DNA of 64,000 nt from an uncultured bacterium (GCA_943841495.1 CALSYL010000003.1:283294-347293); one strand, 5' to 3'; positions 11,095 through 60,473 are shown, counted from the first letter of the stretch. Notes: generated by a model from the letters alone, not told the origin. A program made the numbers and translations.

Positions 11095-12351
11095 ATGAAT
11101 AATTCTATCTTTAAATTTAAAATTGTTATAGCATCCTTGTTGATATTTTTAGCCTCCTGTAGTGAAGAAACCATCTTATATAATGAAATTGAAAATAAAG
11201 AGGGGACCATAAAAACTGCAACCTTACCTGAAACAAATAATAAAATCTTTCAAGCTTTCCCTGATTTTAGTTCAAATACAAAATTATTTTTTGGGAATGA
11301 GAAAGAATCAGAGAACTTATTTTCATTAGTACAAATGACCTTATTCTCTGGAAATATTCCTCCAACTAGTTTGATTGATCTTCTAGCTGATTCAATTCAA
11401 GTCGATAGTGCAATGGTATTTTTTGAAACAGCTGATTCTTTAATCTCAGCCTCAAACCTTTCTCTATATTCTGTTCTCGGTGATCAAGATAGTGTTTTTT
11501 CTGATTCTACCAATTTTTATACATTGGAAAATTTCTTAGATTTTGAAAATAATTCTGCTTTATTAGGGGAAATTCCGCTTGCATCAATCGCACCTGATAG
11601 TTCTGGATACGATACTTTAAGTTTTATTTTTAAAGATGAAAGCTTGAATGGTTTAAAGCAGTACTTTTTAGATTCAGATACATATCCAGCTAGAACATTC
11701 ATGCTTAAAGTTGATAGCCCATTAGATGAACTTTTTACCATTGAAAGCAATGAAGCTTCAAATAGAGGTCCAAAAATGAGAGTTTGGTACAAATCTTTTG
11801 TTGATGAAGAGACTACAGTAGATACTTTTATTACTTTCTTTGCTCAAAAAGATATTAGCGTTTTTAGACCGCCAAGTATTGAAAATGATGATGTAAACTT
11901 TATTACTCTAAATTCAGGTTCTGCACTTAGATCGATTATAGAATTTGATTTAGGTCTTATTGATTCATTATCTAGAAACGAGCTCTTTAAAAATTCTAAT
12001 CTTGTTTTAAGCGTAGAAAGTTCAAATCTAACAACAGATGACGAGTTTTATGTTATTGTCAGCGCTCTTCAAGATTCAGTTATTAATTGGAATTTTACAT
12101 CACCTTTTGTTGATTTAAATCCAAATGAATCAATTTCAGATACAACGTATTTGTCTGATCCTAATTTTATTATTTCAAGAAAAATTGAAGAAAATGAAGT
12201 AAAAATTCCAATCCAAGCTTTCTTACAGGGTTATAAAAATGGCCTCTTTCAATTTGATGAATTGATGTTGTATAGCGCACCTGTTAATAGTCCTTTTGAT
12301 AAAGTGAAGTTTAATTTAAATGCAATAGAGGTTTTATATGTGGAGCCGTAA
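11095..12351 (+). CDS. hypothetical lipoprotein
   Basis: Lipoprotein signal IASLLIFLASCSEE; no catalytic motif recognised; the context after the short GlgA-like gene recalls the DUF4270 arrangement of Bacteroidota (recollection, unverified). Confidence 0.4.
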   Translation: MNNSIFKFKIVIASLLIFLASCSEETILYNEIENKEGTIKTATLPETNNKIFQAFPDFSSNTKLFFGNEKESENLFSLVQMTLFSGNIPPTSLIDLLADSIQVDSAMVFFETADSLISASNLSLYSVLGDQDSVFSDSTNFYTLENFLDFENNSALLGEIPLASIAPDSSGYDTLSFIFKDESLNGLKQYFLDSDTYPARTFMLKVDSPLDELFTIESNEASNRGPKMRVWYKSFVDEETTVDTFITFFAQKDISVFRPPSIENDDVNFITLNSGSALRSIIEFDLGLIDSLSRNELFKNSNLVLSVESSNLTTDDEFYVIVSALQDSVINWNFTSPFVDLNPNESISDTTYLSDPNFIISRKIEENEVKIPIQAFLQGYKNGLFQFDELMLYSAPVNSPFDKVKFNLNAIEVLYVEP

Positions 12352-13585
12352 TATATTTTTAGCTTTATTTTTCATTTCTACGGCATTTTCTCAGAACTCT
12401 ATGAGTGGATATGGTTACGGTTCTTCCGTAGAAAATACTGATGCTTCCTCATCTGGAGTATCTAATAAATTATTACCATCATTTAAATCAAATATTTCAT
12501 TATCAAACCCTTCAACTTGGCATAATTTACTTTTTACTTACTTAACTACCTCCGTTGATGTTCAAAGTGTTGCTCTTCAGTCACAGTCCAGTACTAATTT
12601 TTCACTTTCTTCTATGAAGCTGGTGATTCCTTGGAAACAAAAAATGTCTTTTGGAGTCGCATTTGAACCTTATCTTTTTAGAGAATTAACTGTTTCTGAT
12701 ACTACAATGACCGCGTTTAACTTCAATGATGATGAGTTGCTTTACACCAGAATGAATAGTTCTTCTGGAGGACCATCGCTAGGACAATTATCTTTTGGAT
12801 ATAAGCTGAATGAATTTGATAGCATAGGTAGCAATCTAAATATAATTTTTGGCTCTTCTAGGTCTACTAGAACCTTAACAATCGATGAAGAAAATCACTT
12901 ACTCCAATCTAGAGATTATTTCTCTGGAGCTATGATGGATTTATTTTACTCTACCAAAAGATTAAAGATAAAAGAAAAGCCAATTTTCCTATCTTTTGCT
13001 TTACAGCTTCCTTTAAGAGGAGTGGATATTGAAAATGACTCTTATCAGGCTTTTTTAGATTTAAATGATAATAATTATCATGATACAAATGATTTTCCAG
13101 ATGTTGGTCAAGCTTTATTGCCATTAACGCAAAAGTTTGATGATGAGCTAAAAGCCAGCTCCTTCCTATTAGGGGCAGACTATGAATTTTCTCCTAGAAA
13201 GCATATTCAAATTGAGATCCTAAACTGGAAAGATAGTGGCAATCATAATCTAAATAGTTCACTTTTTAATGGATATGTTGACAGCAAGAATAAGTTTAGC
13301 GTCGCATACATGAAATTTGCTCAACCCTTTACAAGGGATCGTTATAATTTTAAAGGTTCAATCTTTGTACAAAACTATGGTGTAAAAAATCTTGAAAATA
13401 TTAGTGAAGTAGGTTTAGGTTTAGGAGTAGGTTTTAATTTTGGAATCACAGGGAATCAAATAGACTTTGGATATAAATTTTCAAAAAGAAACGGCTTGCA
13501 TCTTGTAGGTGATGAATCGTTTCATGTATTTAATATTGGGGTCAGCATTGGAGATCTATGGTTTGTAAAAAGAAGAGAAATATAA
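12338..13585 (+). CDS. hypothetical outer-membrane beta-barrel-like protein
   Basis: Signal peptide NIFLALFFISTAFSQ; Gly/aromatic-rich alternating segments (GLGLGVGFNFGITGNQIDFGYKF); 14-nt overlap with upstream gene. Confidence 0.4.
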   Translation: MWSRNIFLALFFISTAFSQNSMSGYGYGSSVENTDASSSGVSNKLLPSFKSNISLSNPSTWHNLLFTYLTTSVDVQSVALQSQSSTNFSLSSMKLVIPWKQKMSFGVAFEPYLFRELTVSDTTMTAFNFNDDELLYTRMNSSSGGPSLGQLSFGYKLNEFDSIGSNLNIIFGSSRSTRTLTIDEENHLLQSRDYFSGAMMDLFYSTKRLKIKEKPIFLSFALQLPLRGVDIENDSYQAFLDLNDNNYHDTNDFPDVGQALLPLTQKFDDELKASSFLLGADYEFSPRKHIQIEILNWKDSGNHNLNSSLFNGYVDSKNKFSVAYMKFAQPFTRDRYNFKGSIFVQNYGVKNLENISEVGLGLGVGFNFGITGNQIDFGYKFSKRNGLHLVGDESFHVFNIGVSIGDLWFVKRREI

Positions 13586-17090: not shown

Positions 17091-18068
17091 ATGCATTACT
17101 TCAAAAAAACTTTAATCTTTCTGCTTTTAGTAAGCACAATTTTTTCAAGACCAATAATTATTAAGTTAGCTACCGTTGCACCGGAGGGTACAGAATACTA
17201 TAATTTGCTTTTTGAGATGGGTCAAAGATGGCAACAAGAAACTAATGGCCAGATTCAATTGAGAATTTATCCAAACGGAGTAGTTGGGGGAGAACGTGAT
17301 ACTATAAGAAAAATGCGAGTAGGTCAAATTCAAGCTTCAGCAATGTCATCAATTGGATTAGCTGAATTGACTGATCAAATTCAAGCGTTTACTTTACCGA
17401 TGGGTTTTAAAAATTATGACGAAATTGATCGCGTTAAAAATGTAATGTTTGGAGATATTTCTGAAGGATTATCTCAAAGTGGTTTCAAACTCCTTTTTCT
17501 TGTTGATATTGGATGGGTTTACTGGTTTTCAACGGAAGAAATTTCTGTTCCTCAAGATTTGATGGATGCTAAAATTTATACCACTGGCGGAGATTATGTT
17601 ACTGTTGAACTTTTTAAAAAGTTTGGTTTCAATGCCATTCCTGTATCTGAAACAGATATATTAACATCATTGCAAACCGGAATGATAAATAGTATGCAAA
17701 CAGTTCCTATTCTGTCATTGAGCTCTGGATGGTCAGCTTTAATGCCAAATATGCTAGACTTGAAATGGGGTGCTTTTGTGGGCGCTGTTATTGTCGATGA
17801 AAGAGTTTGGAAAAAAATTAAACCTGAACATCAAAAAATTATGATGGACATTGCACAAGATATTGGAAAAAAGTATCAAAAAAGTGGAAGAGAAATGGAA
17901 AAGAAAGCTATTGATGTTATGCAGCAGTATGGTATGAAAATTAAAAAGCCATCTGACGAAGAAATTGCCATTTGGAATGATTTTAAAGATGAGATTACTC
18001 CTGATGTTATAGATACTTATCTAACTAACGAGATTTACGAAAAAGTTACCTCCGCTATCAATGAATGA
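17091..18068 (+). CDS. TRAP transporter substrate-binding protein (DctP family)
   Basis: Signal peptide, then KLATVAPEGTEYY... and RKMRVGQIQASAMS pattern; followed by the TRAP permease. Confidence 0.8.
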   Translation: MHYFKKTLIFLLLVSTIFSRPIIIKLATVAPEGTEYYNLLFEMGQRWQQETNGQIQLRIYPNGVVGGERDTIRKMRVGQIQASAMSSIGLAELTDQIQAFTLPMGFKNYDEIDRVKNVMFGDISEGLSQSGFKLLFLVDIGWVYWFSTEEISVPQDLMDAKIYTTGGDYVTVELFKKFGFNAIPVSETDILTSLQTGMINSMQTVPILSLSSGWSALMPNMLDLKWGAFVGAVIVDERVWKKIKPEHQKIMMDIAQDIGKKYQKSGREMEKKAIDVMQQYGMKIKKPSDEEIAIWNDFKDEITPDVIDTYLTNEIYEKVTSAINE

Positions 18069-19857
18069 TTTCATAAATAAGGCAATTGATAGGCTTTGTT
18101 TATTTTTATTTTTAATTCTTATATCTTTTCCAATTTTTCAAATTCTCAGTAGGTATATAGATTTCTTCTCTATTCCTGCCTCGCAACAAATTGTTCAACA
18201 TATGACGCTTTGGATAGGTTTTGTAGGCGCAATAATTGCTGCAAGATCAAATAAACTTCTTTCGGTTGTAAGAGAGCCAGTTTTTAGATCTTCAGATTCA
18301 AATTCATTACCTCATTTCTTAGTACATGCTTTTTCCGTTGCAATTGTTTTTATTTTATCAATTTCTTATCTCAAAATGATTCAGATTGGTATTCAATATC
18401 CAGAATATATTGCACCATACATTCCTACTTGGTTTGCACAGTCTATCATACCAATAGGGTTGATATTGATTTGGTATCAAATGATTATTACTAGCAGTTC
18501 AGATTTAAGGTATAGACTTTTGTTGGTGGTTATCTCTATCGTTCCTGCTATAACTCTTTATTATTGGCAATTTCCTTTAGCAAATTCATTTCTATTATGG
18601 ACTAAAGTTATTTCAGCTTTAGTTTTAGTTGCATTCGGACTACCAATTTTTATTTTGTTAGCTTCACTGTCTGTATTTTTCTTTTTATCTGAACCTACTG
18701 ATTGGGCAACAAATTTTGATTTAATCTCTACTATCAGCGATAGCGCATATCGAATTGTTGTTTCTCCAACATTAGCTGCAATTCCAATTTTTACTTTGGC
18801 GGGCTATATTCTTGCTGAAAGTAATATATCTAAAAGATTAATCAATTTTTTTAAAGCCAGCGTGGGTTGGATTCCTGGTTCTACTGTTTTGATTGTAGTA
18901 TTATTATGTGCTTTTTTTACTGCATTAACAGGAGGGTCGGGAGTAACCATATTAGCTTTAGGTGCAATTTTATATCCTATCTTAATTCATGACGGGTATT
19001 CTGAGAAATTTTCTTTGGGTATTATAACCACAGCAGGTTCATTAGGGTTGTTATTTCCTCCAAGCTTGCCAGCTATCATCTATTCTGTGACTGCTGGAAT
19101 TAATCCTTTAGAACTTTTTAGACAAGCGCTTATACCAGCTATTTTTTTAATGAGTATTATGTTTTTTTATGGGCTTTACAAAAAGCCTAAAACTGATATC
19201 AAGCAAAAATTTATTTTAAAAGATGCAATATTGACTGGCAAGATTGCTAAATGGGAAATAGCAGTTCCTCTCTTAATCATTTTGAGTCTTTTTACAGGTT
19301 TTGCAACATTAGTCGAAAGTGCAGCTCTGCTGGTTTTATATGTTTTAATGGTTGAAGTAGTCATCTTTAAAGATATTAGCTTTAATGATATTCCTAAAAT
19401 TATTATTAATTGTTCAACCTTAGTAGGAGGAGTATTAATTATTCTTGGTTTTGCCATGGGGTTCACAGGATATCTTGTAGACGCTCAAATACCCTTGAAA
19501 ATTTTAAATTTCGTTCAAAGTACAATAACTTCAAAAATTATATTTTTACTAGCATTGAATTTATTATTGTTAATCGTTGGTTGCTTAATGGATGTTTTTT
19601 CAGCAATAATTGTAGTAGTACCATTGATAGCTCCCTTGGCTATATATTTTGGTATAGACCCATTTCATCTTGCAATAATCTTTATTGCTAATTTAGAGTT
19701 GGGATATATTACTCCTCCAGTAGGGATGAATTTATATTTATCATCTTATAGATTTGATAAAGATATGCCAACGATTTATAATGCTACTTTACCTTTCTTT
19801 TTCATAAGGCTAATTGGTGTGTTATTTATCACATATATTCCTTTGTTCTTTTACTGA
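18061..19857 (+). CDS. TRAP transporter fused small/large permease (DctQ-DctM)
   Basis: 598 aa; about 150-aa 4-TM N-terminal part plus about 12-TM DctM-like part (ALTGGSGVTILALGAILYP, ELGYITPPVGMNLY); 8-nt overlap with the binding-protein gene. Confidence 0.85.
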   Translation: MNDFINKAIDRLCLFLFLILISFPIFQILSRYIDFFSIPASQQIVQHMTLWIGFVGAIIAARSNKLLSVVREPVFRSSDSNSLPHFLVHAFSVAIVFILSISYLKMIQIGIQYPEYIAPYIPTWFAQSIIPIGLILIWYQMIITSSSDLRYRLLLVVISIVPAITLYYWQFPLANSFLLWTKVISALVLVAFGLPIFILLASLSVFFFLSEPTDWATNFDLISTISDSAYRIVVSPTLAAIPIFTLAGYILAESNISKRLINFFKASVGWIPGSTVLIVVLLCAFFTALTGGSGVTILALGAILYPILIHDGYSEKFSLGIITTAGSLGLLFPPSLPAIIYSVTAGINPLELFRQALIPAIFLMSIMFFYGLYKKPKTDIKQKFILKDAILTGKIAKWEIAVPLLIILSLFTGFATLVESAALLVLYVLMVEVVIFKDISFNDIPKIIINCSTLVGGVLIILGFAMGFTGYLVDAQIPLKILNFVQSTITSKIIFLLALNLLLLIVGCLMDVFSAIIVVVPLIAPLAIYFGIDPFHLAIIFIANLELGYITPPVGMNLYLSSYRFDKDMPTIYNATLPFFFIRLIGVLFITYIPLFFY

Positions 19858-27031: not shown

Positions 27032-28426
27032 TTGCTTTACTTTTTAATAGATAATACTTCACTATCTGTTTATAATCATACAAATAACAAGCAGAGCCTT
27101 GCTTTAGCTGATAAAGTAAAATTTCATATACCATTATTAAAAATTCTTAATAATTCAAAAAAACTTAATTCAGTTATTGCAAGATCTTTAGATGAAATTA
27201 GCGAAAAAGTATCTTTAACCAATAACAGAGCCTCTATTATTATTGATGATATGCTTTTAAGTCATTCTGTTATAATTAAATCAAAAAAATATAAAACTAT
27301 TGATGAACAGCTTAAAAAAGAGTCTAATCTAAAATGGGGGAATGTTGCTGCAAACCTATATTTTGTATCTGAAGAAAAAAAATCTCCTAAAAATGTATAC
27401 CATTCTGTTGCTCTTCATCATTTTTTAAGAGAAAAAATTAAGTTAAACTTTAATAATTTTGGAATGAATATTAACTATTTAGTTCCTCTATCTTCGATTT
27501 TAACCTCAGGATTAAAGTCATCTCAGTTTGCAGTGATTAAGAATGGAAAAAAATTCACATTTTTTGGTAATACTAGAAAAGGATTTATGTTTTTTAAAGC
27601 CAACTTTTCTGGACCAAGAAAAAGCTTTGAAAAGATTATAGGCTTATTAGACTTGCCAAAAATACAGCTTAAAGACTTAGATAAGAGCAGTTTAAAATTC
27701 ATATTCTTTAATAGATTAAAAATAGTCGAATATTTAGCTAATTTTGTATTAAGCGATGTCCCATTATTAAATTTTGCAGAAACTAATAGAGCTCAGATCG
27801 TAGGTGGAAAAAATAATTCAATTTTAAAAACATTTAGACCGCCAAATAATAGTTTTGATTATACAAATCTTATTAAAAATATTTCTTCAGGCATAATATC
27901 ATTATTATTTCTTACCCTTATAATTTCTTTTTTTTATGATTATGAATTTTTAGATATGGATGAAGAGGTTAGTGTTAGACTTGATAAAGAAAATCTAGAG
28001 CCCTTGTCTACAAGAGATCTTGCTTTAAATTCTTCATTAGAAATTATAAAAAAAATAGAGATTGTGATGAATAGCACAGATAAGGTAGACAGTTTTATCA
28101 TCTCCGAAAATATTTTTAATATTAATGATCAGAAAGTTGAATTCAATAACAGTTCATTTAAAAGAATTCAAAGCAATGCAAGCGGAAGTTATAATGAGTT
28201 ACTAGTTAAATTTTTCGAGATAGAAAACAATTTAAAGTTTAAAGTTTTTGATTCTATGTTTGATAACCAAAATGCCAAAAATCTTGTGCTTAAATTCGAT
28301 AAGAATGATAATATTCTTGAAATTATAAGTGAAATTAAAAGCTTTAATAATATGATTGTTAAAAAAGCAAGCTTCAGCAAAGAGAAGGAAAGTTTGCATT
28401 TGTATATAACTATTATTGAGTCATGA
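27032..28426 (+). CDS. hypothetical protein with a central TM segment
   Basis: 464-aa ORF (TTG start as listed), Lys/Asn-rich, one hydrophobic segment GIISLLFLTLIISFFY near residue 290; no motif recognised. Confidence 0.4.
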   Translation: MLYFLIDNTSLSVYNHTNNKQSLALADKVKFHIPLLKILNNSKKLNSVIARSLDEISEKVSLTNNRASIIIDDMLLSHSVIIKSKKYKTIDEQLKKESNLKWGNVAANLYFVSEEKKSPKNVYHSVALHHFLREKIKLNFNNFGMNINYLVPLSSILTSGLKSSQFAVIKNGKKFTFFGNTRKGFMFFKANFSGPRKSFEKIIGLLDLPKIQLKDLDKSSLKFIFFNRLKIVEYLANFVLSDVPLLNFAETNRAQIVGGKNNSILKTFRPPNNSFDYTNLIKNISSGIISLLFLTLIISFFYDYEFLDMDEEVSVRLDKENLEPLSTRDLALNSSLEIIKKIEIVMNSTDKVDSFIISENIFNINDQKVEFNNSSFKRIQSNASGSYNELLVKFFEIENNLKFKVFDSMFDNQNAKNLVLKFDKNDNILEIISEIKSFNNMIVKKASFSKEKESLHLYITIIES

Positions 28427-42971: not shown

Positions 42972-43637
42972 ATGACATCACTTCAATCAAGAATTTTAAT
43001 AGGTTTAATTGGTTTTCCCTCCGTTATTTATATCATTTTTAATCATATTATTATATTTAATCTTTTAGTTGCTGTTTGTTTTATTTTAGCCTTCAACGAA
43101 TACCTTAAAGTTGTGAAAGGGTATAGCCAAAGCTTTTTTTGGAAAATTTTTGGAGTAATATACATATTTGGAAGTCTTGCTTCTCTTATATATTTAAGAA
43201 ATATTGACTCAATTATAGGGTCTCCATTCACATTTCTTTTGTTTGCAGGAGTGATGATAAATGATTCCATGGCTTTTATTGTAGGTAAATTAGTTGGAGG
43301 GCCAAAAATTTTACCAAAAATATCTCCAAAAAAAACATATTCAGGTTTATTTGGAGGCTTAATTGGTTCTATTGTTTTTATATACTTAGCAGATAATTAT
43401 TTTTTAAATAGTTTTGATAATTTTTCTTTGAATTTTAGAGATAAAATTTTTCTGGTTTTTGTTTTTAATGTCGTTGGATTTATTGGTGATGGCTTTGAAT
43501 CTTTTCTCAAAAGAAAAGCCAATATTAAAGATTCATCAAGTCTTCTTTTGGGACATGGAGGAATGCTTGACAGGTTAGACTCTTTAATATTGACAACACC
43601 GGTAACAATGTTTTATGTTATTGCGTATTATTTATGA
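42972..43637 (+). CDS. cdsA: phosphatidate cytidylyltransferase
   Basis: SFLKRKANIKDSSSLLLGHGGMLDRLDS; polytopic. Confidence 0.85.
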   Translation: MTSLQSRILIGLIGFPSVIYIIFNHIIIFNLLVAVCFILAFNEYLKVVKGYSQSFFWKIFGVIYIFGSLASLIYLRNIDSIIGSPFTFLLFAGVMINDSMAFIVGKLVGGPKILPKISPKKTYSGLFGGLIGSIVFIYLADNYFLNSFDNFSLNFRDKIFLVFVFNVVGFIGDGFESFLKRKANIKDSSSLLLGHGGMLDRLDSLILTTPVTMFYVIAYYL

Positions 43638-45460
43638 GCAAGAAAATCAAATCAATTTTAGCTACTGATTGCGGTAGTACTACCACAAAAGCTATTCTTA
43701 TAGAATGGAAAGAAGACAGATATAAATTAACATTTAGAGGTGAGGCTCCAACTACAGTAGAAGCACCCTTTGAAGATGTTACTAAAGGCGTTTTGAATGC
43801 TGTTATGGAAGTAGAAGAACTTTCTGGAAGAACTATTCTTGATGGAGATAAAATTATTACTCCCGATAATGGATCTTCAGGTGTAGACATTTATGTATCA
43901 ACCAGTTCAGCTGGCGGAGGCCTACAAATGATGGTTGCTGGTGTTGTGAAGTCCATGTCTGGAGAAAGCGCAGAAAGAGCAGCGTTGGGAGCAGGATCTA
44001 TTGTTATGGATGTGTTAGCTTCAAATGATGGAAGACTTCCTCACGAAAAGATAACCAGAATTAGACAATTACGTCCTGATATGATTTTATTATCTGGAGG
44101 TACAGATGGAGGAACTACTACTCATGTTATGGAGTTAGCTGAAATTTTAGCTGCAGCAAATCCTCGACCAAGATTAGGACAAAATTATAAGCTGCCTGTT
44201 ATATACGCTGGAAATAATAAGGCACAAGAATCCATTAGAAAAACACTTGGCGAAATTTCAGATTTAGATATTGTTGACAATATTCGTCCAGTATTAGAAC
44301 AAGAAAATCTTGAGCCATCTAGAGATAAGATTCATGATTTATTTATGGAACACGTCATGGCGCAAGCTCCAGGATATAAAAAATTAATGTCTTGGACTGA
44401 CGCTCCAATTATGCCTACGCCAGGAGCTGTAGGGTCATTAATTGAAATGATTGCTAAAAAAGAAAATATTTCTGTGGTTGGAGTTGATATTGGAGGTGCT
44501 ACTACAGATATTTTTTCAGTTTTTGAAGGAAAATTTAACAGAACAGTTAGCGCTAATTTAGGAATGAGTTATTCAATTTGTAATGTGCTTGCTGAATCAG
44601 GTTTAGATAATGTTTTAAGATGGGTCCCTTTTGATATTGATAGAAGCGAACTAACCAATAGAATTGGTAATAAAATGATACGACCAACCACAGTACCTCA
44701 ATCGCTGGAAGAGCTTGTTATTGAGCAAGCAATTGCTAGAGAAGCCTTGAGGTTGTCTTTCATTCAACATAAAGAGTTTGCAACAAGCTTAAAGGGTGTT
44801 CAGTCTGAAAGAACAATTTCAGATGCATTTGAACAATCTTCTAGCGGCCAATCTCTAGTTAATATGATGGAATTAGATCTTCTTGTTGGTTCTGGAGGAG
44901 TTCTTTCTCATGCGCCTAGAAGACAGCAATCTGCAAGGATGTTGATTGATTCTTTTATGCCAGAAGGTATTACGCAACTAGCTGTTGATTCTATTTTTAT
45001 GATGCCACAACTAGGAGTGTTGGCTAATATTGATAAGGATGAATTGAAAGATGATGCTAGTCAAGCAGCACTTGAGGTGTTTGATAACGATTGTTTGATT
45101 CGATTAGGAACTTGTATCACTCCAGTTGGAAGCGCTAAGCCAAATTCTAAAATGGCTGATGTAACTTTAACCTTCAATGATGGAACTGTTAAGGATATTG
45201 AGATCAATGAAGGAACATTAGAAATGATGGAATATCCTTATGAAGAAGTCAAAGTATCAATCAAACCAGCTAGAGGAATAGATGTAGGGGCAGGTAAAGG
45301 CGAAGCATTAGAGTCGGTAATTTATGGAGGAGTAGTAGGGTTAATTTTTGACGGAAGAAATCGTCCAATCACACTATCAAAAGAATCAAGCCAAAGAATT
45401 GACAGTTTACTAAGCTGGTCAAAAGCTGTAGATGAATATCCAAAAGGAGAAATGTTTTAA
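43634..45460 (+). CDS. GlmL/MutL-type actin-fold (ASKHA) ATPase, orphan
   Basis: DCGSTTTKAIL, LSGGTDGGT, VDIGGATTDIFS; 608 aa; ATGA overlap with cdsA; no mutase or lyase partner genes nearby. Confidence 0.7.
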   Translation: MSKKIKSILATDCGSTTTKAILIEWKEDRYKLTFRGEAPTTVEAPFEDVTKGVLNAVMEVEELSGRTILDGDKIITPDNGSSGVDIYVSTSSAGGGLQMMVAGVVKSMSGESAERAALGAGSIVMDVLASNDGRLPHEKITRIRQLRPDMILLSGGTDGGTTTHVMELAEILAAANPRPRLGQNYKLPVIYAGNNKAQESIRKTLGEISDLDIVDNIRPVLEQENLEPSRDKIHDLFMEHVMAQAPGYKKLMSWTDAPIMPTPGAVGSLIEMIAKKENISVVGVDIGGATTDIFSVFEGKFNRTVSANLGMSYSICNVLAESGLDNVLRWVPFDIDRSELTNRIGNKMIRPTTVPQSLEELVIEQAIAREALRLSFIQHKEFATSLKGVQSERTISDAFEQSSSGQSLVNMMELDLLVGSGGVLSHAPRRQQSARMLIDSFMPEGITQLAVDSIFMMPQLGVLANIDKDELKDDASQAALEVFDNDCLIRLGTCITPVGSAKPNSKMADVTLTFNDGTVKDIEINEGTLEMMEYPYEEVKVSIKPARGIDVGAGKGEALESVIYGGVVGLIFDGRNRPITLSKESSQRIDSLLSWSKAVDEYPKGEMF

Positions 45461-46587
45461 TGGCTCATTCATATACGCCAGGTCTTAAAGTTTTAAAGAA
45501 AACAATTTTTAAAAAAGAAAGAATTCTTCCTTTAAAGGGAGACGTTTTAGTTAAAAAGGGTGATATTTTAAATCCTGAAACTATTGTTGCCTCAACAAAT
45601 TTACCTGGTAATGTTCAAATGTTAAAAGTAAGTAACATTCTAAATATTGATCCAAAAGATGTCATTGAGGCATTAAAAGTTGAAGAAGGGCAAGCAATTA
45701 AAAAAGGTGACATTATTGCTGAAACAGCTGGCGTATTTGGAATGTTTAAGTCGTCTGTGGAAAGTCCTGTAGATGGAACTATTGAATCTGTGTCTCAAAG
45801 CACTGGAAGGGTTGTTCTTCGTGAAGCTCCTATACCAGTAGAAGTTGACGCATATGTTAGCGGTATTGTTGATGAGGTAGTAGAAAATGAAGGTATCATT
45901 CTTTCATCGAATGCTGCATTTATTCAGGGTATTTTTGGTATAGCTGGTGAAAAAAGAGGAGATTTAGTTTTAGTTTCCTCAAGTCCTTTTGAAGAATTAA
46001 CTGCAGAGCAAATCACTGCAGATATGAAAGGTAAAATTTTAATTGGTGGATCTTTTTTAAGTCTTGAAGCTTATAAAAAAGCGCTAAGTGTTAATGTAGC
46101 GGGTATTGTTGTCGGAGGTTTCAATTATTTCGACCTAAAAGCAGTTTTAGGATATGATCTTGGAGTCGCTATTACAGGAACAGAAAAACTTAACACGGCA
46201 TTAATTGTTACAGAGGGTTATGGATCAATTCCAATGAGTGAAGCTACATATTCATTATTGAAAGAGAATGTGGGTAAGGCAGCTTCAATAAATGGAGCTA
46301 CGCAGATCAGAGCTGGAGTTATTCGACCAGAAATAGTAATTCCAATTGATAGTGCTAATACTGATAGTGATAGTGAATCTAAAATGCCACAAGGAATTCA
46401 AGAAGGAAGTACAGTCAGGGTAATTCGTTCACCAAATTTTGGTAAAATTGGTACCGTAATTTCTTTGCCATCTGAACTTAATAAAATGGAATCTGAAACA
46501 ATGGTTAGAGTTGCTGAAATTAAAATCGATGAACAAAATTACTTAATTCCAAGAGCGAACTTGGAAATGGTAGAAACTGATGAATAA
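45460..46587 (+). CDS. hypothetical soluble protein (operon member B)
   Basis: 375 aa, no Cys; two barrel-sandwich-like segments (VKKGDILNPETIVAST; IKKGDIIAE...SPVDGTIESV) and a KOW/SH3-like C-terminus (GSTVRVIRSPNFGKIGTVISLP); TAATG junction with the ATPase gene. Confidence 0.4.
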   Translation: MAHSYTPGLKVLKKTIFKKERILPLKGDVLVKKGDILNPETIVASTNLPGNVQMLKVSNILNIDPKDVIEALKVEEGQAIKKGDIIAETAGVFGMFKSSVESPVDGTIESVSQSTGRVVLREAPIPVEVDAYVSGIVDEVVENEGIILSSNAAFIQGIFGIAGEKRGDLVLVSSSPFEELTAEQITADMKGKILIGGSFLSLEAYKKALSVNVAGIVVGGFNYFDLKAVLGYDLGVAITGTEKLNTALIVTEGYGSIPMSEATYSLLKENVGKAASINGATQIRAGVIRPEIVIPIDSANTDSDSESKMPQGIQEGSTVRVIRSPNFGKIGTVISLPSELNKMESETMVRVAEIKIDEQNYLIPRANLEMVETDE

Positions 46588-46852
46588 ATCACTAAATATT
46601 GACGACAAAGTGTTTCTAACCAGAATGGCTGAAGAAGTTATTGCAAGAAGATTGACCACACCGTCAATCTTTTTTTTAGAAATGATGAAACCTTTAAATT
46701 TTGTTGGTAGTCAGGCAATGATTTTTTTTGGACCAATAATTAGTGCATTTGTCAAAACAGATGGTTATTATAAGGCTGCTGAGATTTTTGAGAATCATCA
46801 CAGCGTAGAATTTTTAATTCAAGAGATAGAAAGATTAGATAGAAATGAATAA
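46580..46852 (+). CDS. hypothetical small membrane-associated protein (operon member C)
   Basis: 90 aa, one hydrophobic segment PLNFVGSQAMIFFGPIISAFV; ATGAATAA overlap upstream and downstream. Confidence 0.4.
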   Translation: MNKSLNIDDKVFLTRMAEEVIARRLTTPSIFFLEMMKPLNFVGSQAMIFFGPIISAFVKTDGYYKAAEIFENHHSVEFLIQEIERLDRNE

Positions 46853-47720
46853 TAAATATCAAGTTTATGCAATGGGAATAGTGGGTATTTTACTATTTAC
46901 TTTAGCATTATCTTCTCTACCTGATTCTCTTAATTTTTTTAGAGAAGAAAAATCTGCAATGTTTGCTTTTACCTTAACTGTTATTATGATAATGTTATAT
47001 GAGGTTAAGCTTGCAAAAAATTCTTCTGAAAATACTTTTTTAAGAACCATTCCTGGTCTTAAGGCAGTTGAAGAAGCTGTTGGAAGATCTACGGAAATGG
47101 GAAGACCTATTTTATATGTTCCTGGCATTATGGATATGAATGAAGTTGAAACTGTTGCAGGTGTTGTTGTGCTTGGACATGTTGCTAATATGACTGCGCA
47201 ATATGAGACTGAGCTTGATGTTCCTGTTGCTAGAGCTATTGTAATGCAATCTGCTAGACAGGTCACAAAAGAAGCTTATATGACTCAAGGTAGACCTGAG
47301 ATGTATAATGAAGATATGGTTCACTATATTACTGATGATCAATTTGCATATGCTGCATCTGTCAATGGTATCATGCAAAGAGATGAACCGGCTGCTTGCC
47401 TATATATGGGTAAGTTTTATGCAGAATCTTTATTATTTGCCGAAACTGGTAACAGTATTGGTGCTATTCAAATTGCTGGGACTGGTTCACAAACTCAAAT
47501 TCCATTTTTTGTTACAGCATGTGACTATACATTAATGGGAGAAGAATTCTTTGCAGCTAGCGCATATTTGTCAGAGGAACCAGAATTAATAGCTGGAATT
47601 ACAGCTCAAGATATAATCAAAGTGTTGCTAATTGGATTTATTTTGCTGTCAATTGTTTCCAGAGCATTTTTTGATTTAGGTTTAACTAATTTTAATCTTA
47701 TAACCTGGTTGAATTTATAG
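46845..47720 (+). CDS. hypothetical membrane protein (operon member D)
   Basis: Two N-terminal TM and one C-terminal TM flanking a soluble domain of about 170 aa; not recognised. Confidence 0.4.
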   Translation: MNNKYQVYAMGIVGILLFTLALSSLPDSLNFFREEKSAMFAFTLTVIMIMLYEVKLAKNSSENTFLRTIPGLKAVEEAVGRSTEMGRPILYVPGIMDMNEVETVAGVVVLGHVANMTAQYETELDVPVARAIVMQSARQVTKEAYMTQGRPEMYNEDMVHYITDDQFAYAASVNGIMQRDEPAACLYMGKFYAESLLFAETGNSIGAIQIAGTGSQTQIPFFVTACDYTLMGEEFFAASAYLSEEPELIAGITAQDIIKVLLIGFILLSIVSRAFFDLGLTNFNLITWLNL

Positions 47721-47721
47721 C

Positions 47722-48621
47722 ATGTTATTAAAGAGATATATCCCTATTGGTATTGTAGCATTCTTTGGAGCGCTAACATTAAGTGCATGGTTTATCGATA
47801 ATGAAACTATTGAAACCTTTGCTAATGACGATGCAACTCAGTTTTTTGATATTATAGCTGCCTTTGCTGTGTTTTTAGGAGCTTTAAACTTATTAAAACT
47901 TCAATTTATTAAAGTGTTAAAACAGCAATCTGGTTGGCAATATAGCGCTATTGCAATTGCTTCATTCTTTTTTGCTTTCATCATTGGGTTTTTTATTAGG
48001 GGTGCATATTTTGTTGGAGAAGAGGTTTACTTCAGTCAAGGCGCTGCAGAAGAGGCGGTACTAGCTTTAGGTTCTACTGAACAGGTAGTTCCTGTAGATT
48101 GGGGAGCGCATGTTCAAACTGACGGAAGTTTATTTCAATGGATGTTTAAATATATTTTCTCACCACTTTCTGCAACTATGTTTGCTTTGTTAGCATTTTT
48201 TGTTGCATCAGCTTCTTTTAGAGCATTTAGAGCAAGAAATCTTGAAGCGTCTTTATTATTAGTTGCTGGGATTATTATTATGCTTGGAAGAGTTCCTGTT
48301 GGAAGCTTAATCTCTTCATGGGTAGTAATGTATATTATTGCCTTTTCAGTTGGTTTTGGTGTAAATGCGTACACTAGAAATCGTAATATGGCCCTTGGAT
48401 GGGTTTTAGGAAGTTTTGGTTTAATAACTGGATTAGGATTTACTATGGGCTGGCCAATTGATCAACCAGCTATTTTTTACTTACCTGCTCTTCAAGAATG
48501 GATTTATTTAGTCCCTAACTTGGCTGGATCTAGAGCAATTTTAATTGGTATTGGGCTTGGAATTGTCGCAACAAGTCTTAGATATATCTTTGGATTAGAA
48601 AAATCTTATTTAGGAGAATAA
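47722..48621 (+). CDS. hypothetical polytopic membrane protein (operon member E)
   Basis: About 7 hydrophobic helices; starts 1 nt after D. Confidence 0.4.
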   Translation: MLLKRYIPIGIVAFFGALTLSAWFIDNETIETFANDDATQFFDIIAAFAVFLGALNLLKLQFIKVLKQQSGWQYSAIAIASFFFAFIIGFFIRGAYFVGEEVYFSQGAAEEAVLALGSTEQVVPVDWGAHVQTDGSLFQWMFKYIFSPLSATMFALLAFFVASASFRAFRARNLEASLLLVAGIIIMLGRVPVGSLISSWVVMYIIAFSVGFGVNAYTRNRNMALGWVLGSFGLITGLGFTMGWPIDQPAIFYLPALQEWIYLVPNLAGSRAILIGIGLGIVATSLRYIFGLEKSYLGE

Positions 48622-49487
48622 TGAAGTTTTTAGAAGATATCATTTTAAAGCTAGGAGCTGTTGATAGAAGATTTATCTTCTTATTGATTGGCTTAGCTGT
48701 GCTTATACCATTATTGACACCTATAACTTTGCCAGTTAGAGAAACACCTACAACTGTTAAGTTCTATGAAGGAATAGATAATATTCCAAAAAATTCTAAA
48801 GTTTTAGTTTCTTTTGATTATGGGCCAAGCACTCGTCCAGAAATTCATCCAATGAATGTTGGAGTTATGAGACATATGCTTCGAAATGGACATAAAATTT
48901 ATATTTCATGTTTATGGCCAGATGGTATTTATATGGCTTTAGATGCGTTGGAAGAAATTACCGATTCAGTAAATCCTGATAATCAATCAACTTTCGATAT
49001 AAAAGAATATGAAGATTATATTTTGCTTGGTTATAGACCAGGCGCTGAAGCTGTTATTAAAGGTCTTGCAAGTGATTTACGAAAAGTCTATACAGTTGAT
49101 GCCAAGGGTAGATTTATTGATGACATTGAAATGATGGACGAAATCCAAAACTTAAATGATTTCGCCTATATTTACAGTGGTTCAGCAGGTTATCCAGGAA
49201 CATTTGAATGGGTAAAATATGGCGGCGATCCGACAGGAGTTCCTATGTCATCAGGAACAACTTCAGTTCAAGTAAATGAAGTAATTCCTTATGTACAGAC
49301 TGGACAGTTGATTGGGTTACTAGCAGGTATGCCTGGAGCAGCAGAGTATGAAAAATTAATTGCTTCTCCTGGAATTGCTATACAAGGAATGGCTGCACAA
49401 TCGTTTGCGCATATTGTTATTGTCATATTCATTGTTTTTGGAAATTTAGCATTTTTTATTAAGCAACGAAGAGATAGGAAGTATTAA
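48621..49487 (+). CDS. hypothetical bitopic membrane protein (operon member F)
   Basis: N-terminal TM FIFLLIGLAVLIPLL and C-terminal TM FAHIVIVIFIVFGNLAFFI flanking about 220 aa; TAATG junctions on both sides. Confidence 0.4.
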   Translation: MKFLEDIILKLGAVDRRFIFLLIGLAVLIPLLTPITLPVRETPTTVKFYEGIDNIPKNSKVLVSFDYGPSTRPEIHPMNVGVMRHMLRNGHKIYISCLWPDGIYMALDALEEITDSVNPDNQSTFDIKEYEDYILLGYRPGAEAVIKGLASDLRKVYTVDAKGRFIDDIEMMDEIQNLNDFAYIYSGSAGYPGTFEWVKYGGDPTGVPMSSGTTSVQVNEVIPYVQTGQLIGLLAGMPGAAEYEKLIASPGIAIQGMAAQSFAHIVIVIFIVFGNLAFFIKQRRDRKY

Positions 49488-50254
49488 TGACTTTTTCTGC
49501 AATTTTTGGAGCATGGATAGCGGCGTTTTTAACGTTGGGTATTTTTTCTTATTTATATAAGGACAACCCGTTCTATAAGATTGCTGAACATGTTTTTGTA
49601 GGGATTTCCGCAGCTTATGTGGCTGCGATAAGTTTTTGGACTCAAATTTATCCAAACCTCTTTGGAAGGCTTTTCCCTAAAGATGGTCCTTTCTCATTTA
49701 CCGGTTTAGAATTTGACTTTAATCATGAATTTAATATCCTGTATTTATTTCCTCTTATTTTAGGCTTAATGATGCTTTTAAGTGTGTTTCAGCAATTTAA
49801 TTGGATGGCTAGATGGGGAATTGCTTACACAGTTGCTATAGCTGCTGGATTGAAGGCTTTTGGATATTTAAACTCGAATGTTTTAAATCAGGTGAAGGCA
49901 AGCTCAGTAGATCTTTTTAGTGGTTCATTACCATTTTTTAGTCTTGGAGGAGATAGTGTTTTCAACAATATTGTCCTCTTGATCGGTACCATAAGTTCTT
50001 TGATGTATTTTTATTTTTCAAAAGAGCAAACTGGTAATTTTGGTAGATTTACTCGTCTAGGTATTTACTTTTTAATGGTAAGTTTTGGAGCTTCATTTGG
50101 GTTTGCAGTTATGGGAAGAATCTCTCTATTAATCGGAAGATTCAATGACTTGATTGAGTATTCATCTGTTGACTACAACTATGGAACTTTTTATGTATTA
50201 TTATTTATTATTATTGTTTTAGGTTTTTGGTCCTTCAAAAACCGTGAAAAATAG
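49487..50254 (+). CDS. hypothetical polytopic membrane protein (operon member G)
   Basis: About 6-7 hydrophobic helices; not recognised. Confidence 0.4.
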   Translation: MTFSAIFGAWIAAFLTLGIFSYLYKDNPFYKIAEHVFVGISAAYVAAISFWTQIYPNLFGRLFPKDGPFSFTGLEFDFNHEFNILYLFPLILGLMMLLSVFQQFNWMARWGIAYTVAIAAGLKAFGYLNSNVLNQVKASSVDLFSGSLPFFSLGGDSVFNNIVLLIGTISSLMYFYFSKEQTGNFGRFTRLGIYFLMVSFGASFGFAVMGRISLLIGRFNDLIEYSSVDYNYGTFYVLLFIIIVLGFWSFKNREK

Positions 50255-50265
50255 GAGTATCTTAA

Positions 50266-51615
50266 ATGAAAAAATCTGAAATAAGAAGCGTCATCGGCGA
50301 GAGCATTTTAGCTGATGGAATGTCTCCAATAATTGATCTTGAAAAATCGCATGGCTCATGGTTAGTAGATAAGGTAAACGGCAAAGAATATTTAGATTTA
50401 TTTTCAATGTTTGCTTCTTTATCAGTTGGATACAATCATCCATATGTTATTGAGCAATCAGAAAGATTAAGAATTGCTGCAATTAATAAGCCAACAAATT
50501 CAGATGTTTACTCACAAGAAATGGCTGAATTTGTTCAAACTTTTAAAAGAGTTGCTCAACCAGATTATCTTCCTTTGTCATTTTTTATTGAAGGAGGCGG
50601 ATTAGCTGTAGAGAATGCACTTAAAGCCGCTTTTGATTGGAAAAGAAGAAAGAATATGGCAAAAGGAAGCTCTGCTAAAGGAGAAAAAGTAATTCACTTT
50701 AAGCAATGTTTTCATGGTAGAACAGGCTATACTATGTCTTTAACAGATTCTCCGGATAAAAGGAAAACAATGTATTTCCCAAAATTTGATTGGCCTAGAG
50801 TATCAAATCCTAAAATTACATTTCCTATAGAAGATAATATGGAACATATCGTGGACTTAGAAAATCAAGCTATCAATGAAATAAAGAGTGCAATAAATGA
50901 TAATCCTGACAACATCTCATCCATAATTATTGAACCGATTCAAGGAGAAGGTGGCGATAATCATTTTAGATGTGAATTTATGCAGTCATTAAGAAATATA
51001 GCTGATGAAAATGATATTATTTTAATTTATGATGAAGTTCAAACTGGTATAGGTGTTACTGGTAAAATGTGGGCCCATCAACACTTTTCAACTGGTACTT
51101 GTACGGACAACTGTTCATGCGGTCCTGGTCTTTCAGCAAAGCCTGATATCATTTCTTTTGGAAAGAAAACACAGGTATGTGGAATTGCTGCAAGCACAAG
51201 ATTTGACGAAGTTGACGGGAATGTATTTAGAGAATCTAGCAGAATTAACTCAACTTGGGGCGGTAGCTTAGTTGACATGGTTAGACTGACGATTTACCTT
51301 GAGTTAATAGAAAAAGAAAATTTAGTTCATAAAGCTGCAGAGTCTGGAAAATTTTTACTTAACAGTTTACATGATTTGCAGAATGAATTCCCTTCATTGG
51401 TATCAAATTCAAGAGGAAAGGGTTTATACTGCGCTTTTGATTTACCTTCAAGCGAAGATAGAGATAAGCTAGCTGGACTATTGTTAGATGAAGGTTCTAT
51501 CTTATTAGGATCTGGAAATTATTCTATTAGATTTAGGCCGCATTTAAACGTTACTGAAGATGATATAAATTTCGGTATGGATTGTTTTAGAAGAGCGCTC
51601 AACAAACTATCATAA
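50266..51615 (+). CDS. lat: L-lysine 6-transaminase-like class-III aminotransferase
   Basis: N-terminus DLEKSHGSWLVDKVNGKEYLDLFSMFASLSVGYNHP resembles Lat; IYDEVQTGIGVTG and Lys context ISFGKKTQV; GGAG 8 nt upstream of ATG. Confidence 0.75.
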   Translation: MKKSEIRSVIGESILADGMSPIIDLEKSHGSWLVDKVNGKEYLDLFSMFASLSVGYNHPYVIEQSERLRIAAINKPTNSDVYSQEMAEFVQTFKRVAQPDYLPLSFFIEGGGLAVENALKAAFDWKRRKNMAKGSSAKGEKVIHFKQCFHGRTGYTMSLTDSPDKRKTMYFPKFDWPRVSNPKITFPIEDNMEHIVDLENQAINEIKSAINDNPDNISSIIIEPIQGEGGDNHFRCEFMQSLRNIADENDIILIYDEVQTGIGVTGKMWAHQHFSTGTCTDNCSCGPGLSAKPDIISFGKKTQVCGIAASTRFDEVDGNVFRESSRINSTWGGSLVDMVRLTIYLELIEKENLVHKAAESGKFLLNSLHDLQNEFPSLVSNSRGKGLYCAFDLPSSEDRDKLAGLLLDEGSILLGSGNYSIRFRPHLNVTEDDINFGMDCFRRALNKLS

Positions 51616-58859: not shown

Positions 58860-60473
58860 ATGAAACGTTTTTTAATACTATTAAGTATTGTATGGTTAGC
58901 AACATGTGGTGGTGGTGGCGGCTCTCCCACAGAACCTAAATTACAACTTCCTTCAGTTCAAAACATAGCTTTTACTGTTGAAGAAGATTCTTCGGCAACA
59001 TTTTCTTTTTTAGGAACTGATCCATTATCTCAAACATTGACTTATTCTTTATCTTCTCAACCACAAAATGGACAAATCCAAATTAATGGTAGTTCAGCTG
59101 TTTATACGCCAAATCATAATTTTAATGGAGTTGATACCTTCGCATATTTTGCTACCAATGCTGATGGTAATAGTAATATCGGATCAATTGTTGCAACTAT
59201 TTCGCAAGTAGATGATGAACCATCAAACTTCTGATATTACTGCAACAACAAATGAGGATGAGTCAATAGACATTACTATGAATTTAATTGAGGTAAGATG
59301 GAGATAATATTCTATTTACCATCATTGACAACCCCTTCAAATGGAACAGTATCTTTTGCTGGAGCTATTGCAACTTATACTCCAAATCAAAATTGGTATG
59401 GTACAGATACTTTTACTTTTCAAGTTGAAGATTCTAATGCAAGAAAAATTTTAAATTCTGCTACTGCAACTATTATAGTGAATTCAGTCAATGACGCTCC
59501 AGAGGTAGCTAATGTTAGTGCGTCAGTAAATAGTCGACAAAGCTTTAACAGTGAATCAGTAGATATTAATCTAGAAGGAACAGATGTAGAAGGAGATGAA
59601 TTAACATTTAGTATTGTTAATGATGTTTCGAATGGTTCAACTTCGCTATCAGGGTCGATAGTTACCTATACCCCAAATGCGAATTATGATGGAACTGATA
59701 CATTTACCTACAAGGCTAATGATGGTCAATTAGATAGCAATACTGCATCTGGTACAATCACTGTCACTGATATTAATCCAGCTATATCTTTTTCAGCGAC
59801 ACCTACCACAGGTACAAAAGATTTAAGGGTTGTATTTACAAATAATTCAACGAATTATTCATCCGTATTATGGGACTTTGGCGATGGTGCTACAAGTACA
59901 GATGATAGTCCAGTTCACATTTATAGCAATAATGGGATATATGATGTCACTGTAACATTAGACAGTGATTTAGGATCTACATCTCAAATATTTGAAGATT
60001 ATATTGTTGTAGATAACATTTCTTTACCAGCTCTAATTGTAGATCCGAAGTATAATTATACGTCAGTAGGAAAAAATGTAACCGTACAGCTTAACGTTTT
60101 AGGAGTTACAGATCTTACTTCTGCACAGATGATTCTAAATTATTCAACAAGCGATTTGACTTTAAATAGTGTTGTAGCTGGAGATTTTTTAAAGGGCAAT
60201 ACTGCTCCAATGTTTATATCAGAAGAGACAGATGACAGCGCAAATAATTCAACTAGCTTAAAAATATTTACTTCAACGCTTTCAGCTGATAAACCTAGTG
60301 TTTCAGGAGATGGAATTTTGGCAACTTTAAACTTTACCATTGAATCATCCGCTCAAGATGATATTATTTCTATTTTATCTTTTGATGAGATTGCTTCCCA
60401 AATTTTGCTTGATATTAATGGAGATCAAATAACAACAGAACAAACAGTAGATGGATACTTTATCAATGAATAA
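58860..60473 (+). pseudogene. surface lipoprotein: three tandem ~95-aa cadherin-like repeats, PKD, cohesin-like domain; three frame disruptions
   Basis: Lipobox WLATCGGGGGS; repeats ending VDDEP / VNDAP / TDINPA with YTPNxN(F/W/Y)xG(V/T)DTF cores; PKD hallmark WDFGDG; cohesin-like VGKNVTVQLNVLGVTDLTSAQMILNYSTSDLTL...GDGILATLNFTIESS. Repeat 2 is readable only by switching frames at about 59221-59229, 59294-59304 and 59333-59337. Confidence 0.7.

Follow-up and report, generated by a model that had tools for sequence, protein, structure and literature searches.

In a stretch of 64,000 nucleotides from an uncultured bacterium (GCA_943841495.1 CALSYL010000003.1:283294-347293; hereafter the window), seven consecutive genes, which we call A to G, belong to a conserved modular gene system whose units are usually adjacent across many phyla. 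The system comprises a gene pair, A-B, encoding a predicted actin-fold (ASKHA) ATPase and its putative cytoplasmic partner; a four-gene module, DEFG, encoding predicted membrane proteins; and small accessory proteins. A preliminary description, made from the sequence alone, had seen here a membrane system of several subunits, linked with an orphan ATPase of the GlmL/MutL type. The comparison of gene order across genomes was positive and supports this interpretation, and nothing that the description had named as speaking against it was observed (B to G as members of a characterised complex, a neighbourhood not conserved in related genomes, an A lacking ATP-binding residues, or A homologues always without B to G). 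As a tentative reading, which we favour while holding it short of probable, A-G would be the Marinimicrobia version of a widespread, uncharacterised, envelope-facing system, in which a shared cytoplasmic ATPase module (A-B) drives or switches interchangeable DEFG modules.

Gene order across phyla

Gene order was compared in two main samples. For the D-anchored sample, one genome of each GTDB species was scanned with a profile, and the best 80 of at least 595 loci were judged by tblastn and family hidden Markov models, full flanks being 10 kb; the A-anchored sample came from a separate scan of metagenome contigs (at least 515 loci). D-E-F-G were contiguous in nearly all of the best 80 D-anchored loci, from about a dozen phyla, with E always directly after D and G always the last gene of the module. 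The hosts were Marinimicrobia/Fidelibacterota, Lentisphaeria, Zixibacteria, Eisenbacteria, Ignavibacteriales, the planctomycete groups Phycisphaerae, Planctomycetaceae, Isosphaeraceae and Gimesia, as well as WOR-3, Coatesbacteria, Stahlbacteria, Muiribacteriota, Fermentibacteraceae and one metagenome-assembled genome (MAG) labelled Deltaproteobacteria. Of the roughly 36 D-anchored loci whose flanks were complete, about 20 had the A-B pair next to DEFG. Among A-anchored loci, B followed A in 35 of the 37 with at least 4 kb downstream, and D(EFG) was present in 13 of the 18 that had 8 kb or more on each side. Three loci with C-A-B but no DEFG (L115, L121 and L161) and two with A but no B (L132 and L144) were the exceptions. 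Overall, the A-G families were adjacent in about 160 loci from many phyla and in several permutations, the hosts of A-G or a permutation of it including Marinimicrobia, Lentisphaeria, Zixibacteria, Ignavibacteriales, three planctomycete families, Fermentibacteraceae and Coatesbacteria. D, E, F and G are an inseparable four-gene module, and A and B an almost inseparable pair.

The preliminary description placed A at the head of the cluster. This holds in Marinimicrobia (A-B-C-DEFG), but other orders occur elsewhere: C-A-B-DEFG in Planctomycetes, Fermentibacteraceae and others, DEFG-C-A-B in L037 and L063, and A-B divergent from DEFG in L057, L060 and L073. In Zixibacteria, Ignavibacteriales/Ignavibacteria and others, one A-B pair was found with two or three tandem DEFG modules (multi-module loci: L036, L042, L045, L047, L053, L058, L062, L073, L137, L141 and L152). 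A further locus, anchored on B (L081, on a 2.7-Mb contig of Zixibacteria), reads H-C-...-A-B-(M4 peptidase)-DEFG-DEFG, H being an eighth gene described below. A and B were also found as a single 874-aa open reading frame (ORF), partial at the start of its contig, in the Neomarinimicrobiota MAG bin.522 (L066:2-2626), which is either a natural fusion or the result of a stop codon lost through a sequencing or assembly artefact; L078 is possibly of the same lineage.

Between paralogous modules of the same genome, the cytoplasmic DUF6754 core of D was kept best (52-73% identity), followed by G (41-57%) and E (37-57%). The periplasmic parts were kept least: the mostly periplasmic F had 32-55%, and the periplasmic N-terminus of D 26-59%, with values above 51% only on local alignments of 17-30 residues. 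A common cytoplasmic partner, combined with diverging specificity in the periplasm, would give such a pattern of conserved inner and variable outer parts.

Some loci carry additional genes. The peptidase between B and the first DEFG module of L081 (L081:11357-13873) is an 838-aa M4 (thermolysin-type) protein with a weak match to Por_Secre_tail, a type IX secretion sorting domain. In one lineage, a gene of about 250-270 aa, whose product has a soluble domain between a signal peptide and a C-terminal transmembrane (TM) segment, lies between A and B, as in L137 (11782-12594) and L152 (11879-12622); the spacing from A to B is similar in L135, L146, L149, L153 and L156, the extra gene itself having been read in L137 and L152. 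Upstream of A, on the opposite strand, L137 and L152 have at least three DEFG modules, and L153 has one complete module and one that is cut off.

The locus in the window

The seven ORFs are at the positions and of the lengths given in the preliminary description, all on the plus strand, and every junction sequence that it quoted is present (Table 1). It had also used the tight junctions as an argument for coupling; the junctions themselves stand, but they have no discriminating value, since 34 of the 64 same-strand junctions of the window are at most 1 nt (median 0), at a coding density of 94.5%. Because overlap is a habit of this compact genome, the tight A-G junctions taken alone are no more than chance. 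Scans for promoters and terminators gave counts no different from those in shuffled sequence, and an Rfam scan gave nothing beyond two tRNAs.

Table 1. Genes A to G and other features of the window, with predicted properties (TM, transmembrane).
Feature	Position	Strand	Length (aa)	Junction with preceding gene	Description
A	43634-45460	+	608	ATGA, overlap -4 (cdsA/A)	cytoplasmic ASKHA (actin-fold) ATPase, Pfam MutL/GlmL family, extra conserved C-terminal domain of ~140 aa
B	45460-46587	+	375	TAATG, overlap -1	cytoplasmic partner of A: barrel-sandwich hybrid, beta-barrel, alpha/beta domain, KOW/SH3-like tail
C	46580-46852	+	90	ATGAATAA, overlap -8	small conserved protein, one moderately hydrophobic segment, then acidic helix
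D	46845-47720	+	291	ATGAATAA, overlap -8	DUF6754 membrane protein: TM segment(s), conserved cytoplasmic alpha/beta domain, C-terminal TM segment
E	47722-48621	+	299	1-nt gap	polytopic, ~8 hydrophobic segments
F	48621-49487	+	288	TAATG, overlap -1	bitopic, N-terminus inside, ~220 aa periplasmic domain, C-terminal TM segment with invariant polar residues
G	49487-50254	+	255	TAATG, overlap -1	polytopic, ~7 hydrophobic segments
L-lysine 6-transaminase	50266-51615			11 nt downstream of G	TIGR03251
ORF	1512-3158		548		no Pfam match at E <=1e-5
mreB	4937-5977				PF06723, E 1.6e-132
ORFs	5980-7250				between mreB and PBP2; would fit mreC and mreD
PBP2	7243-9024				rod-shape cluster
RodA	9011-10228				rod-shape cluster
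ORF	11095-12351		418		no Pfam match at E <=1e-5
ORF	12338-13585		415		no Pfam match at E <=1e-5
DctP	17091-18068				TRAP solute-binding protein
DctQ-DctM	18061-19857				TRAP membrane protein, fused
ORF	27032-28426		464		no Pfam match at E <=1e-5
ORF	59298-60473		391		Big_9, cadherin-like, PKD, cohesin domains

The predicted ATPase A and its putative partner B

A matched the Pfam family MutL (PF13941; E 9.5e-125, 417.3 bits vs a gathering score of 27) with residues 8-470, over profile positions 1-441 of 450. It was below the cut-offs of the NCBIfam models GlmL (NF040745; 222.6 vs 475 bits), Or-4 (NF040744; 210.6 vs 600) and TIGR01319 (158.1 vs 204.05). These scores place A among the MutL/GlmL-family ASKHA ATPases, yet outside the GlmL orthologues. 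The identity of A between phyla was 57-80%, and the A of L083 was 97% identical to that of the window. An alignment of 22 orthologues from at least six phyla had about 200 invariant columns, among them the nucleotide motifs D12CGSTTTK19, G155G.DGG160, D285IGGATTD292 and G421G422; we take these residue patterns to be the phosphate-1, phosphate-2 and adenosine motifs of the fold. Every ASKHA nucleotide-binding motif is kept, and the loss of ATP-binding residues that had been named as a possible weakness of the proposal is thus not seen; the three motifs first quoted for A (DCGSTTTKAIL, LSGGTDGGT and VDIGGATTDIFS) were all found. Further invariant residues lie in the C-terminal part (D486, C487, G565, G566, D573, R575, R577 and W595). 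A has no hydrophobic segment by hydropathy and no relative in PDB by sequence or profile search, and such searches did not give a significant match for B, D, E, F or G either.

MutL/GlmL is described as a chaperone that reactivates glutamate mutase (PMC4682846), and its family has been grouped with those actin-superfamily proteins that do not polymerise (PMC5597319). The window was said to contain no mutase, lyase or dehydratase. This holds for the 20 largest other ORFs, the smaller ones being outside the scan: no B12-dependent mutase (such as GlmS/GlmE), lyase or dehydratase was found among them, and neither GlmS/GlmE nor another B12 mutase was a recurrent neighbour in other phyla. The genome has its own mreB, which together with PBP2 and RodA forms a canonical rod-shape cluster in the window, and A is no substitute for it.

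B is less conserved between phyla than A (43-69% identity). As had been noted, its sequence contains no Cys; we found no signal peptide or TM segment by hydropathy. Its matches in Pfam and NCBIfam were all sub-threshold (Biotin_lipoyl_2, RnfC_N, NQRA_N, KOW, RND_mfp). The AF2 model (37 sequences; pLDDT 75.4) has four domains. In it, the two KKGD segments that were described as barrel-sandwich-like retain that character, but they are the halves of a single barrel-sandwich hybrid domain and not two separate units. The KOW/SH3-like tail proposed for B is also seen in the model, with a sub-threshold KOW match in Pfam. Foldseek matches of the model were confined to single domains (NusG domain II, PA domain, KOW); the best one in PDB, Thermotoga maritima NusG (2xhc; E 2.4e-4, TM-score 0.15), is a partial domain match. 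For the alpha/beta domain, the best match of the PDB sequence/profile search was RraA (3c8o), not significant at E 0.23.

Three candidate identities of B were rejected. The scores for a biotinyl or lipoyl carrier were below threshold (Biotin_lipoyl 20.5 vs 22.1; Biotin_lipoyl_2 25.9 vs 29.8), and the would-be carrier Lys is not conserved, position 97 being K in the window and S in the consensus of 36 further homologues. A periplasmic adaptor of the HlyD/RND type does not fit the score for TIGR01730 (20.8 vs 94.9 bits) or the lack of a hydrophobic segment. For NusG, the KOW score was 15.8 vs 22.3, there was no NGN match, and the structural similarity was that given above. Several B homologues nevertheless carry the JGI name NusG, which we judge mistaken; the source annotations of proteins of the system are otherwise "hypothetical protein".

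The DEFG module

The preliminary description could assign none of B to G to a family. This stands for B, C, E, F and G but not for D, which matched Pfam DUF6754 (PF20539; E 5e-108, 360.5 bits vs a gathering score of 27) over profile positions 4-247 of 257, a family with 2029 clusters at 50% identity (E <=1e-3). TM counts given here rest on hydropathy, which bore out the earlier picture of hydrophobic segments at both ends of D and F, polytopic E and G, and one segment in C.

D has two N-terminal hydrophobic segments and one C-terminal one. Its homologues share 41 invariant columns, including R81, T83, E84, M85, G86, C226, D227, E233 and E234. The AF2 model (20 sequences; pLDDT 68.7) suggests a Rossmann-like alpha/beta domain at about residues 72-212, between TM helices; residues 188-240, the best-conserved stretch, are poorly modelled. 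A Foldseek search with this model found no analogue in PDB (best E 0.22), and no B12-binding or other cofactor domain was matched. Outside Marinimicrobia, the start of D consists of a signal peptide plus an FN3-like domain (about 110 aa), and long homologues bear fn3 repeats or PQQ_2/BamB-like beta-propellers. Because the signal peptide and the FN3-like domain precede the TM helix in these phyla, the topology is fixed: the variable part of D is predicted to be periplasmic and the conserved DUF6754 domain cytoplasmic. Two DUF6754 genes (L046:10001-10738 and L025:8037-8852) had no E, F, G, A or B in the flanks examined (10 kb on each side for L046, a complete Zixibacteria chromosome), and may be orphan or degenerate copies.

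E, F and G of the window had no match in Pfam, NCBIfam, PADLOC or PHROGs. Homologues of each (33-35) were also scanned singly against Pfam, without consistent matches for any of the three families; the PDB search gave no match for E, with the window protein or 35 homologues, none for G, and no significant one for F. Weak TMD0_ABC matches were present in 7 of the 35 E homologues (best E 0.0014). The invariant residues of E include S163, R167, A168 and F169. ORFs of the E family of 448-592 aa match the E profile twice (L045:14761-16536, L062:15667-17445 and L018:3742-5088), and E appears to be duplicated or fused in these modules. In F, R16 is invariant and D15 and R17 nearly so before the first TM segment, and a tail KQRRDRK follows the second; by the positive-inside rule these flanking basic residues put the two termini on the cytoplasmic side, which leaves the domain of about 220 aa in the periplasm. 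The C-terminal TM segment of F carries the invariant residues Q260, H264 and N275, and the invariant polar residues of G are D26, N27, E34, Q135, R211 and R218. An internal duplication was not detected, D being unrelated to F and E to G by hhalign.

Putative accessory proteins C and H

C had no match in Pfam, NCBIfam, PADLOC or PHROGs, and its hydrophobic segment is weak (Kyte-Doolittle 1.45). C has homologues at more than 40 loci, where it lies upstream of A except in Marinimicrobia, which have it between B and D; the conserved core is P..FFLE..KP..F.GSQ...FFGPI ... E. Directly upstream of C, at least 11 loci of several phyla have the eighth gene, H, whose product (about 150 aa) combines two TM segments with a bPH-like domain. 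No counterpart of H is present in the window.

Proposed mechanism and alternatives

Under the reading that we tentatively prefer, A, with its nucleotide motifs intact, and B would form a shared cytoplasmic module for energising or switching, which would dock onto the DUF6754 domain that D keeps conserved on the cytoplasmic side. The effect of ATP binding and hydrolysis would be passed through a D-E-F-G complex of the inner membrane to the periplasmic face, formed by the large domain of F and, outside Marinimicrobia, by the FN3 or beta-propeller domain of D; the work done there could be transport or a mechanical action on a periplasmic or outer-membrane substrate. Paralogous DEFG modules would provide differing specificities, and C may be an accessory membrane-associated subunit, joined in other phyla by the bPH protein H. 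We favour this scheme because the ATPase motifs are intact and because of the predicted topology, the one-to-many relation of A-B to DEFG and the conservation of the inner face against the variability of the outer one; the invariant polar or charged residues in TM segments of E, F and G also count for it. In a stronger form, to which we lend slightly less credence, this would be the first membrane machine run by an actin-fold (ASKHA) ATPase and not by a P-loop, P-type or rotary one: a universal A-B motor, with interchangeable four-subunit DEFG modules that transport or act mechanically at the periplasm or at the outer membrane in FCB-group, PVC-group and related candidate phyla, including SAR406, a clade abundant in the ocean.

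Several points weigh against such a machine. The physical complex of A-B with DEFG and the hydrolysis of ATP by A are deduced from sequence. About 16 of the 36 full-flank D-anchored loci had no A-B within 10 kb, and 5 of the 18 A-anchored loci had no DEFG; the two units may work apart or sit elsewhere in the genome. The structure models of B and D are of medium confidence and had no functional analogue in Foldseek searches, and no recurrent clue to a substrate was found among 144 flanking genes outside Marinimicrobia. To our knowledge, no characterised ASKHA protein powers a membrane transporter. Finally, the nearest named relatives of A have been described as reactivating chaperones (PMC4682846).

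These relatives suggest a role in maintenance, which we regard as rather unlikely. DEFG would here be a self-contained transporter or enzyme, and A-B an ATP-dependent chaperone in the style of GlmL, EutA or DdrA that assembles, repairs or reloads it, for example by exchange of a damaged cofactor or subunit, without powering each cycle. Besides the membership of A in Pfam MutL and the description of MutL/GlmL as the reactivating chaperone of glutamate mutase (PMC4682846), this explanation is favoured by the single A-B pair for several DEFG modules, by the frequent separation of A-B and DEFG in the genome, which fits a trans-acting factor, and by the cytoplasmic domain of D, modelled as Rossmann-like, a fold that often binds cofactors. 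However, A is below all GlmL and Or-4 equivalog cut-offs and has an extra conserved domain, no cofactor-binding signature was found in D to G with Pfam and NCBIfam, and the D model matched no cofactor domain. The identity of A between phyla would also seem more like that of core machinery than of an accessory chaperone. An Nqr/Rnf-like ion-translocating complex, formed by B and DEFG and coupled to ATP by A, seems improbable to us, as does the corresponding division of roles, with B as the NqrA/RnfC-like peripheral subunit, D and F as the subunits with the cytoplasmic and the periplasmic domain, and E and G as the polytopic pair. B does resemble the N-terminal domain of NqrA/RnfC weakly (RnfC_N, E 0.0049; NQRA_N, E 0.028), the number and topology of the subunits parallel those of Na+-NQR and Rnf, the level of conservation is that of core bioenergetic proteins, and there are invariant charged residues in TM segments of E, F and G. 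Still, the matches of the barrel-sandwich type were all under their gathering scores (RnfC_N 17.3 vs 25.6; NQRA_N 15.1 vs 25), none of 69 E and G homologues matched Rnf-Nqr in Pfam, and F has a conserved G-x-T-[AGS] and not the SGAT flavinylation motif. B lacks Cys, no Fe-S or flavin domain was found in A-G with Pfam and NCBIfam, and tandem paralogous modules would be unusual for respiratory pumps.

The two remaining explanations would leave B to G without a functional tie to A. In one, A reactivates a cobamide enzyme in the manner of GlmL, in connection with the downstream L-lysine 6-transaminase (LAT), and B to G are unrelated membrane genes; A does match Pfam MutL, LAT directly follows G, and an aldehyde dehydrogenase and LAT lie downstream in other Marinimicrobia. 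We find this highly implausible, and largely refuted by the conservation pattern: the constant partners of A are B and DEFG, and the adjacency of LAT and aldehyde dehydrogenase is confined to Marinimicrobia. Mutases, lyases and dehydratases, absent from the 20 largest other ORFs, were not recurrent among the 144 flanking genes of other phyla, and LAT is a pyridoxal-phosphate enzyme, not a B12 enzyme. In the other, A to G are neighbours only through genome compaction, for which overlapping junctions, normal in this window, would speak. We give this hardly any credence: adjacency of the same families in so many loci and phyla, in permuted orders, with tandem modules and one fusion, refutes it.

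Comparison with known systems

The architecture of A-G matches no known system, and five of the seven proteins belong to no described family. In the open literature we found no publication on DUF6754, PF20539, PF13941 or the A-G cluster, subscription-only literature being outside the search. GlmL/MutL of glutamate mutase and Or-4 of ornithine degradation share PF13941 and the ASKHA fold motifs with A; unlike them, A is below their cut-offs, has the extra domain of about 140 aa, was not found with a mutase neighbour, and has B and DEFG as partners. ECF-type and other transporters in which several membrane modules share one energising module offer a functional analogy only, A-B being a single ATPase unit found with two or three paralogous membrane modules that have a conserved cytoplasmic and a divergent outward face. 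ABC and ECF systems differ, however, in that A-G have no P-loop or ABC domain, the ATPase being of the actin fold, and four distinct membrane proteins without detectable relation to theirs; neither ABC_tran nor permease families of Pfam and NCBIfam matched in A-G.

Type VII ABC systems of mechanotransmission (MacB, LolCDE and FtsEX) combine a cytoplasmic ATPase with a large periplasmic domain between TM helices, comparable to that of F, which is compatible with an action in the periplasm. No relation of sequence or fold to them was detected, and the ATPase class and the composition of subunits are different. Similarly, PilM-PilN, GspL, FtsA and MreB-RodZ have an ASKHA protein on the cytoplasmic side of an assembly that spans the envelope, but A is in a different ASKHA family (MutL) and its partners are not related to theirs.

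Judging from the numbers of DUF6754 clusters and of genome and metagenome loci given above, environmental bacteria carry the system very commonly. Its hosts are ecologically important and mostly uncultivated (SAR406 Marinimicrobia, Zixibacteria, Planctomycetes, Ignavibacteria), and in our judgement the identity of A between phyla is at the level expected of core cellular machinery. Should the membrane modules be driven by the ATPase, a new class of energy coupling at bacterial membranes would be added; if it is a repair chaperone, the reactivase principle of GlmL and EutA would be extended to membrane complexes. Cultivable and genetically tractable carriers may exist, since there are loci in MAGs assigned to Gimesia and Singulisphaera, genera with cultured members.

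Neighbouring genes and the rest of the window

The neighbours named in the preliminary description were found as stated, with a YegS-type lipid kinase and cdsA upstream of A, and LAT downstream of G (610.9 bits vs the NCBIfam cut-off of 520.8 for TIGR03251). Recurrence of the cdsA/lipid-kinase and LAT neighbours is limited to Marinimicrobia, where an aldehyde dehydrogenase (PF00171) followed by LAT was seen downstream of G in six loci (L009, L011, L016, L017, L023 and L024). This looks like a catabolic pair from lysine to aminoadipate, kept only in Marinimicrobia. Among the 144 flanking genes outside Marinimicrobia, the highest counts were those of PPDK and M28 peptidase (four each) and of PlsX and FabH (three each); in a few lineages the cluster has MotA/ExbB and TonB genes nearby. 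The lipid genes near the cluster, cdsA and the lipid kinase in the window and probably plsX-fabH at some planctomycete loci, are a weak hint to a substrate.

The closest relatives of the window are MAGs of Marinimicrobia (SAR406) and marine metagenomes. Of its 69 long ORFs, 65 are on the plus strand, and its GC content is about 28-36%. In 30 of 32 segments of 2 kb the GC skew is positive, so that the cumulative skew climbs nearly all the way, as fits one replichore in a streamlined genome. Other genes include four long ORFs without a Pfam match, a TRAP transporter in which the DctP gene is followed by a fused DctQ-DctM gene, and the multidomain 391-aa protein (Table 1), which is likely a cell-surface adhesin or scaffold.

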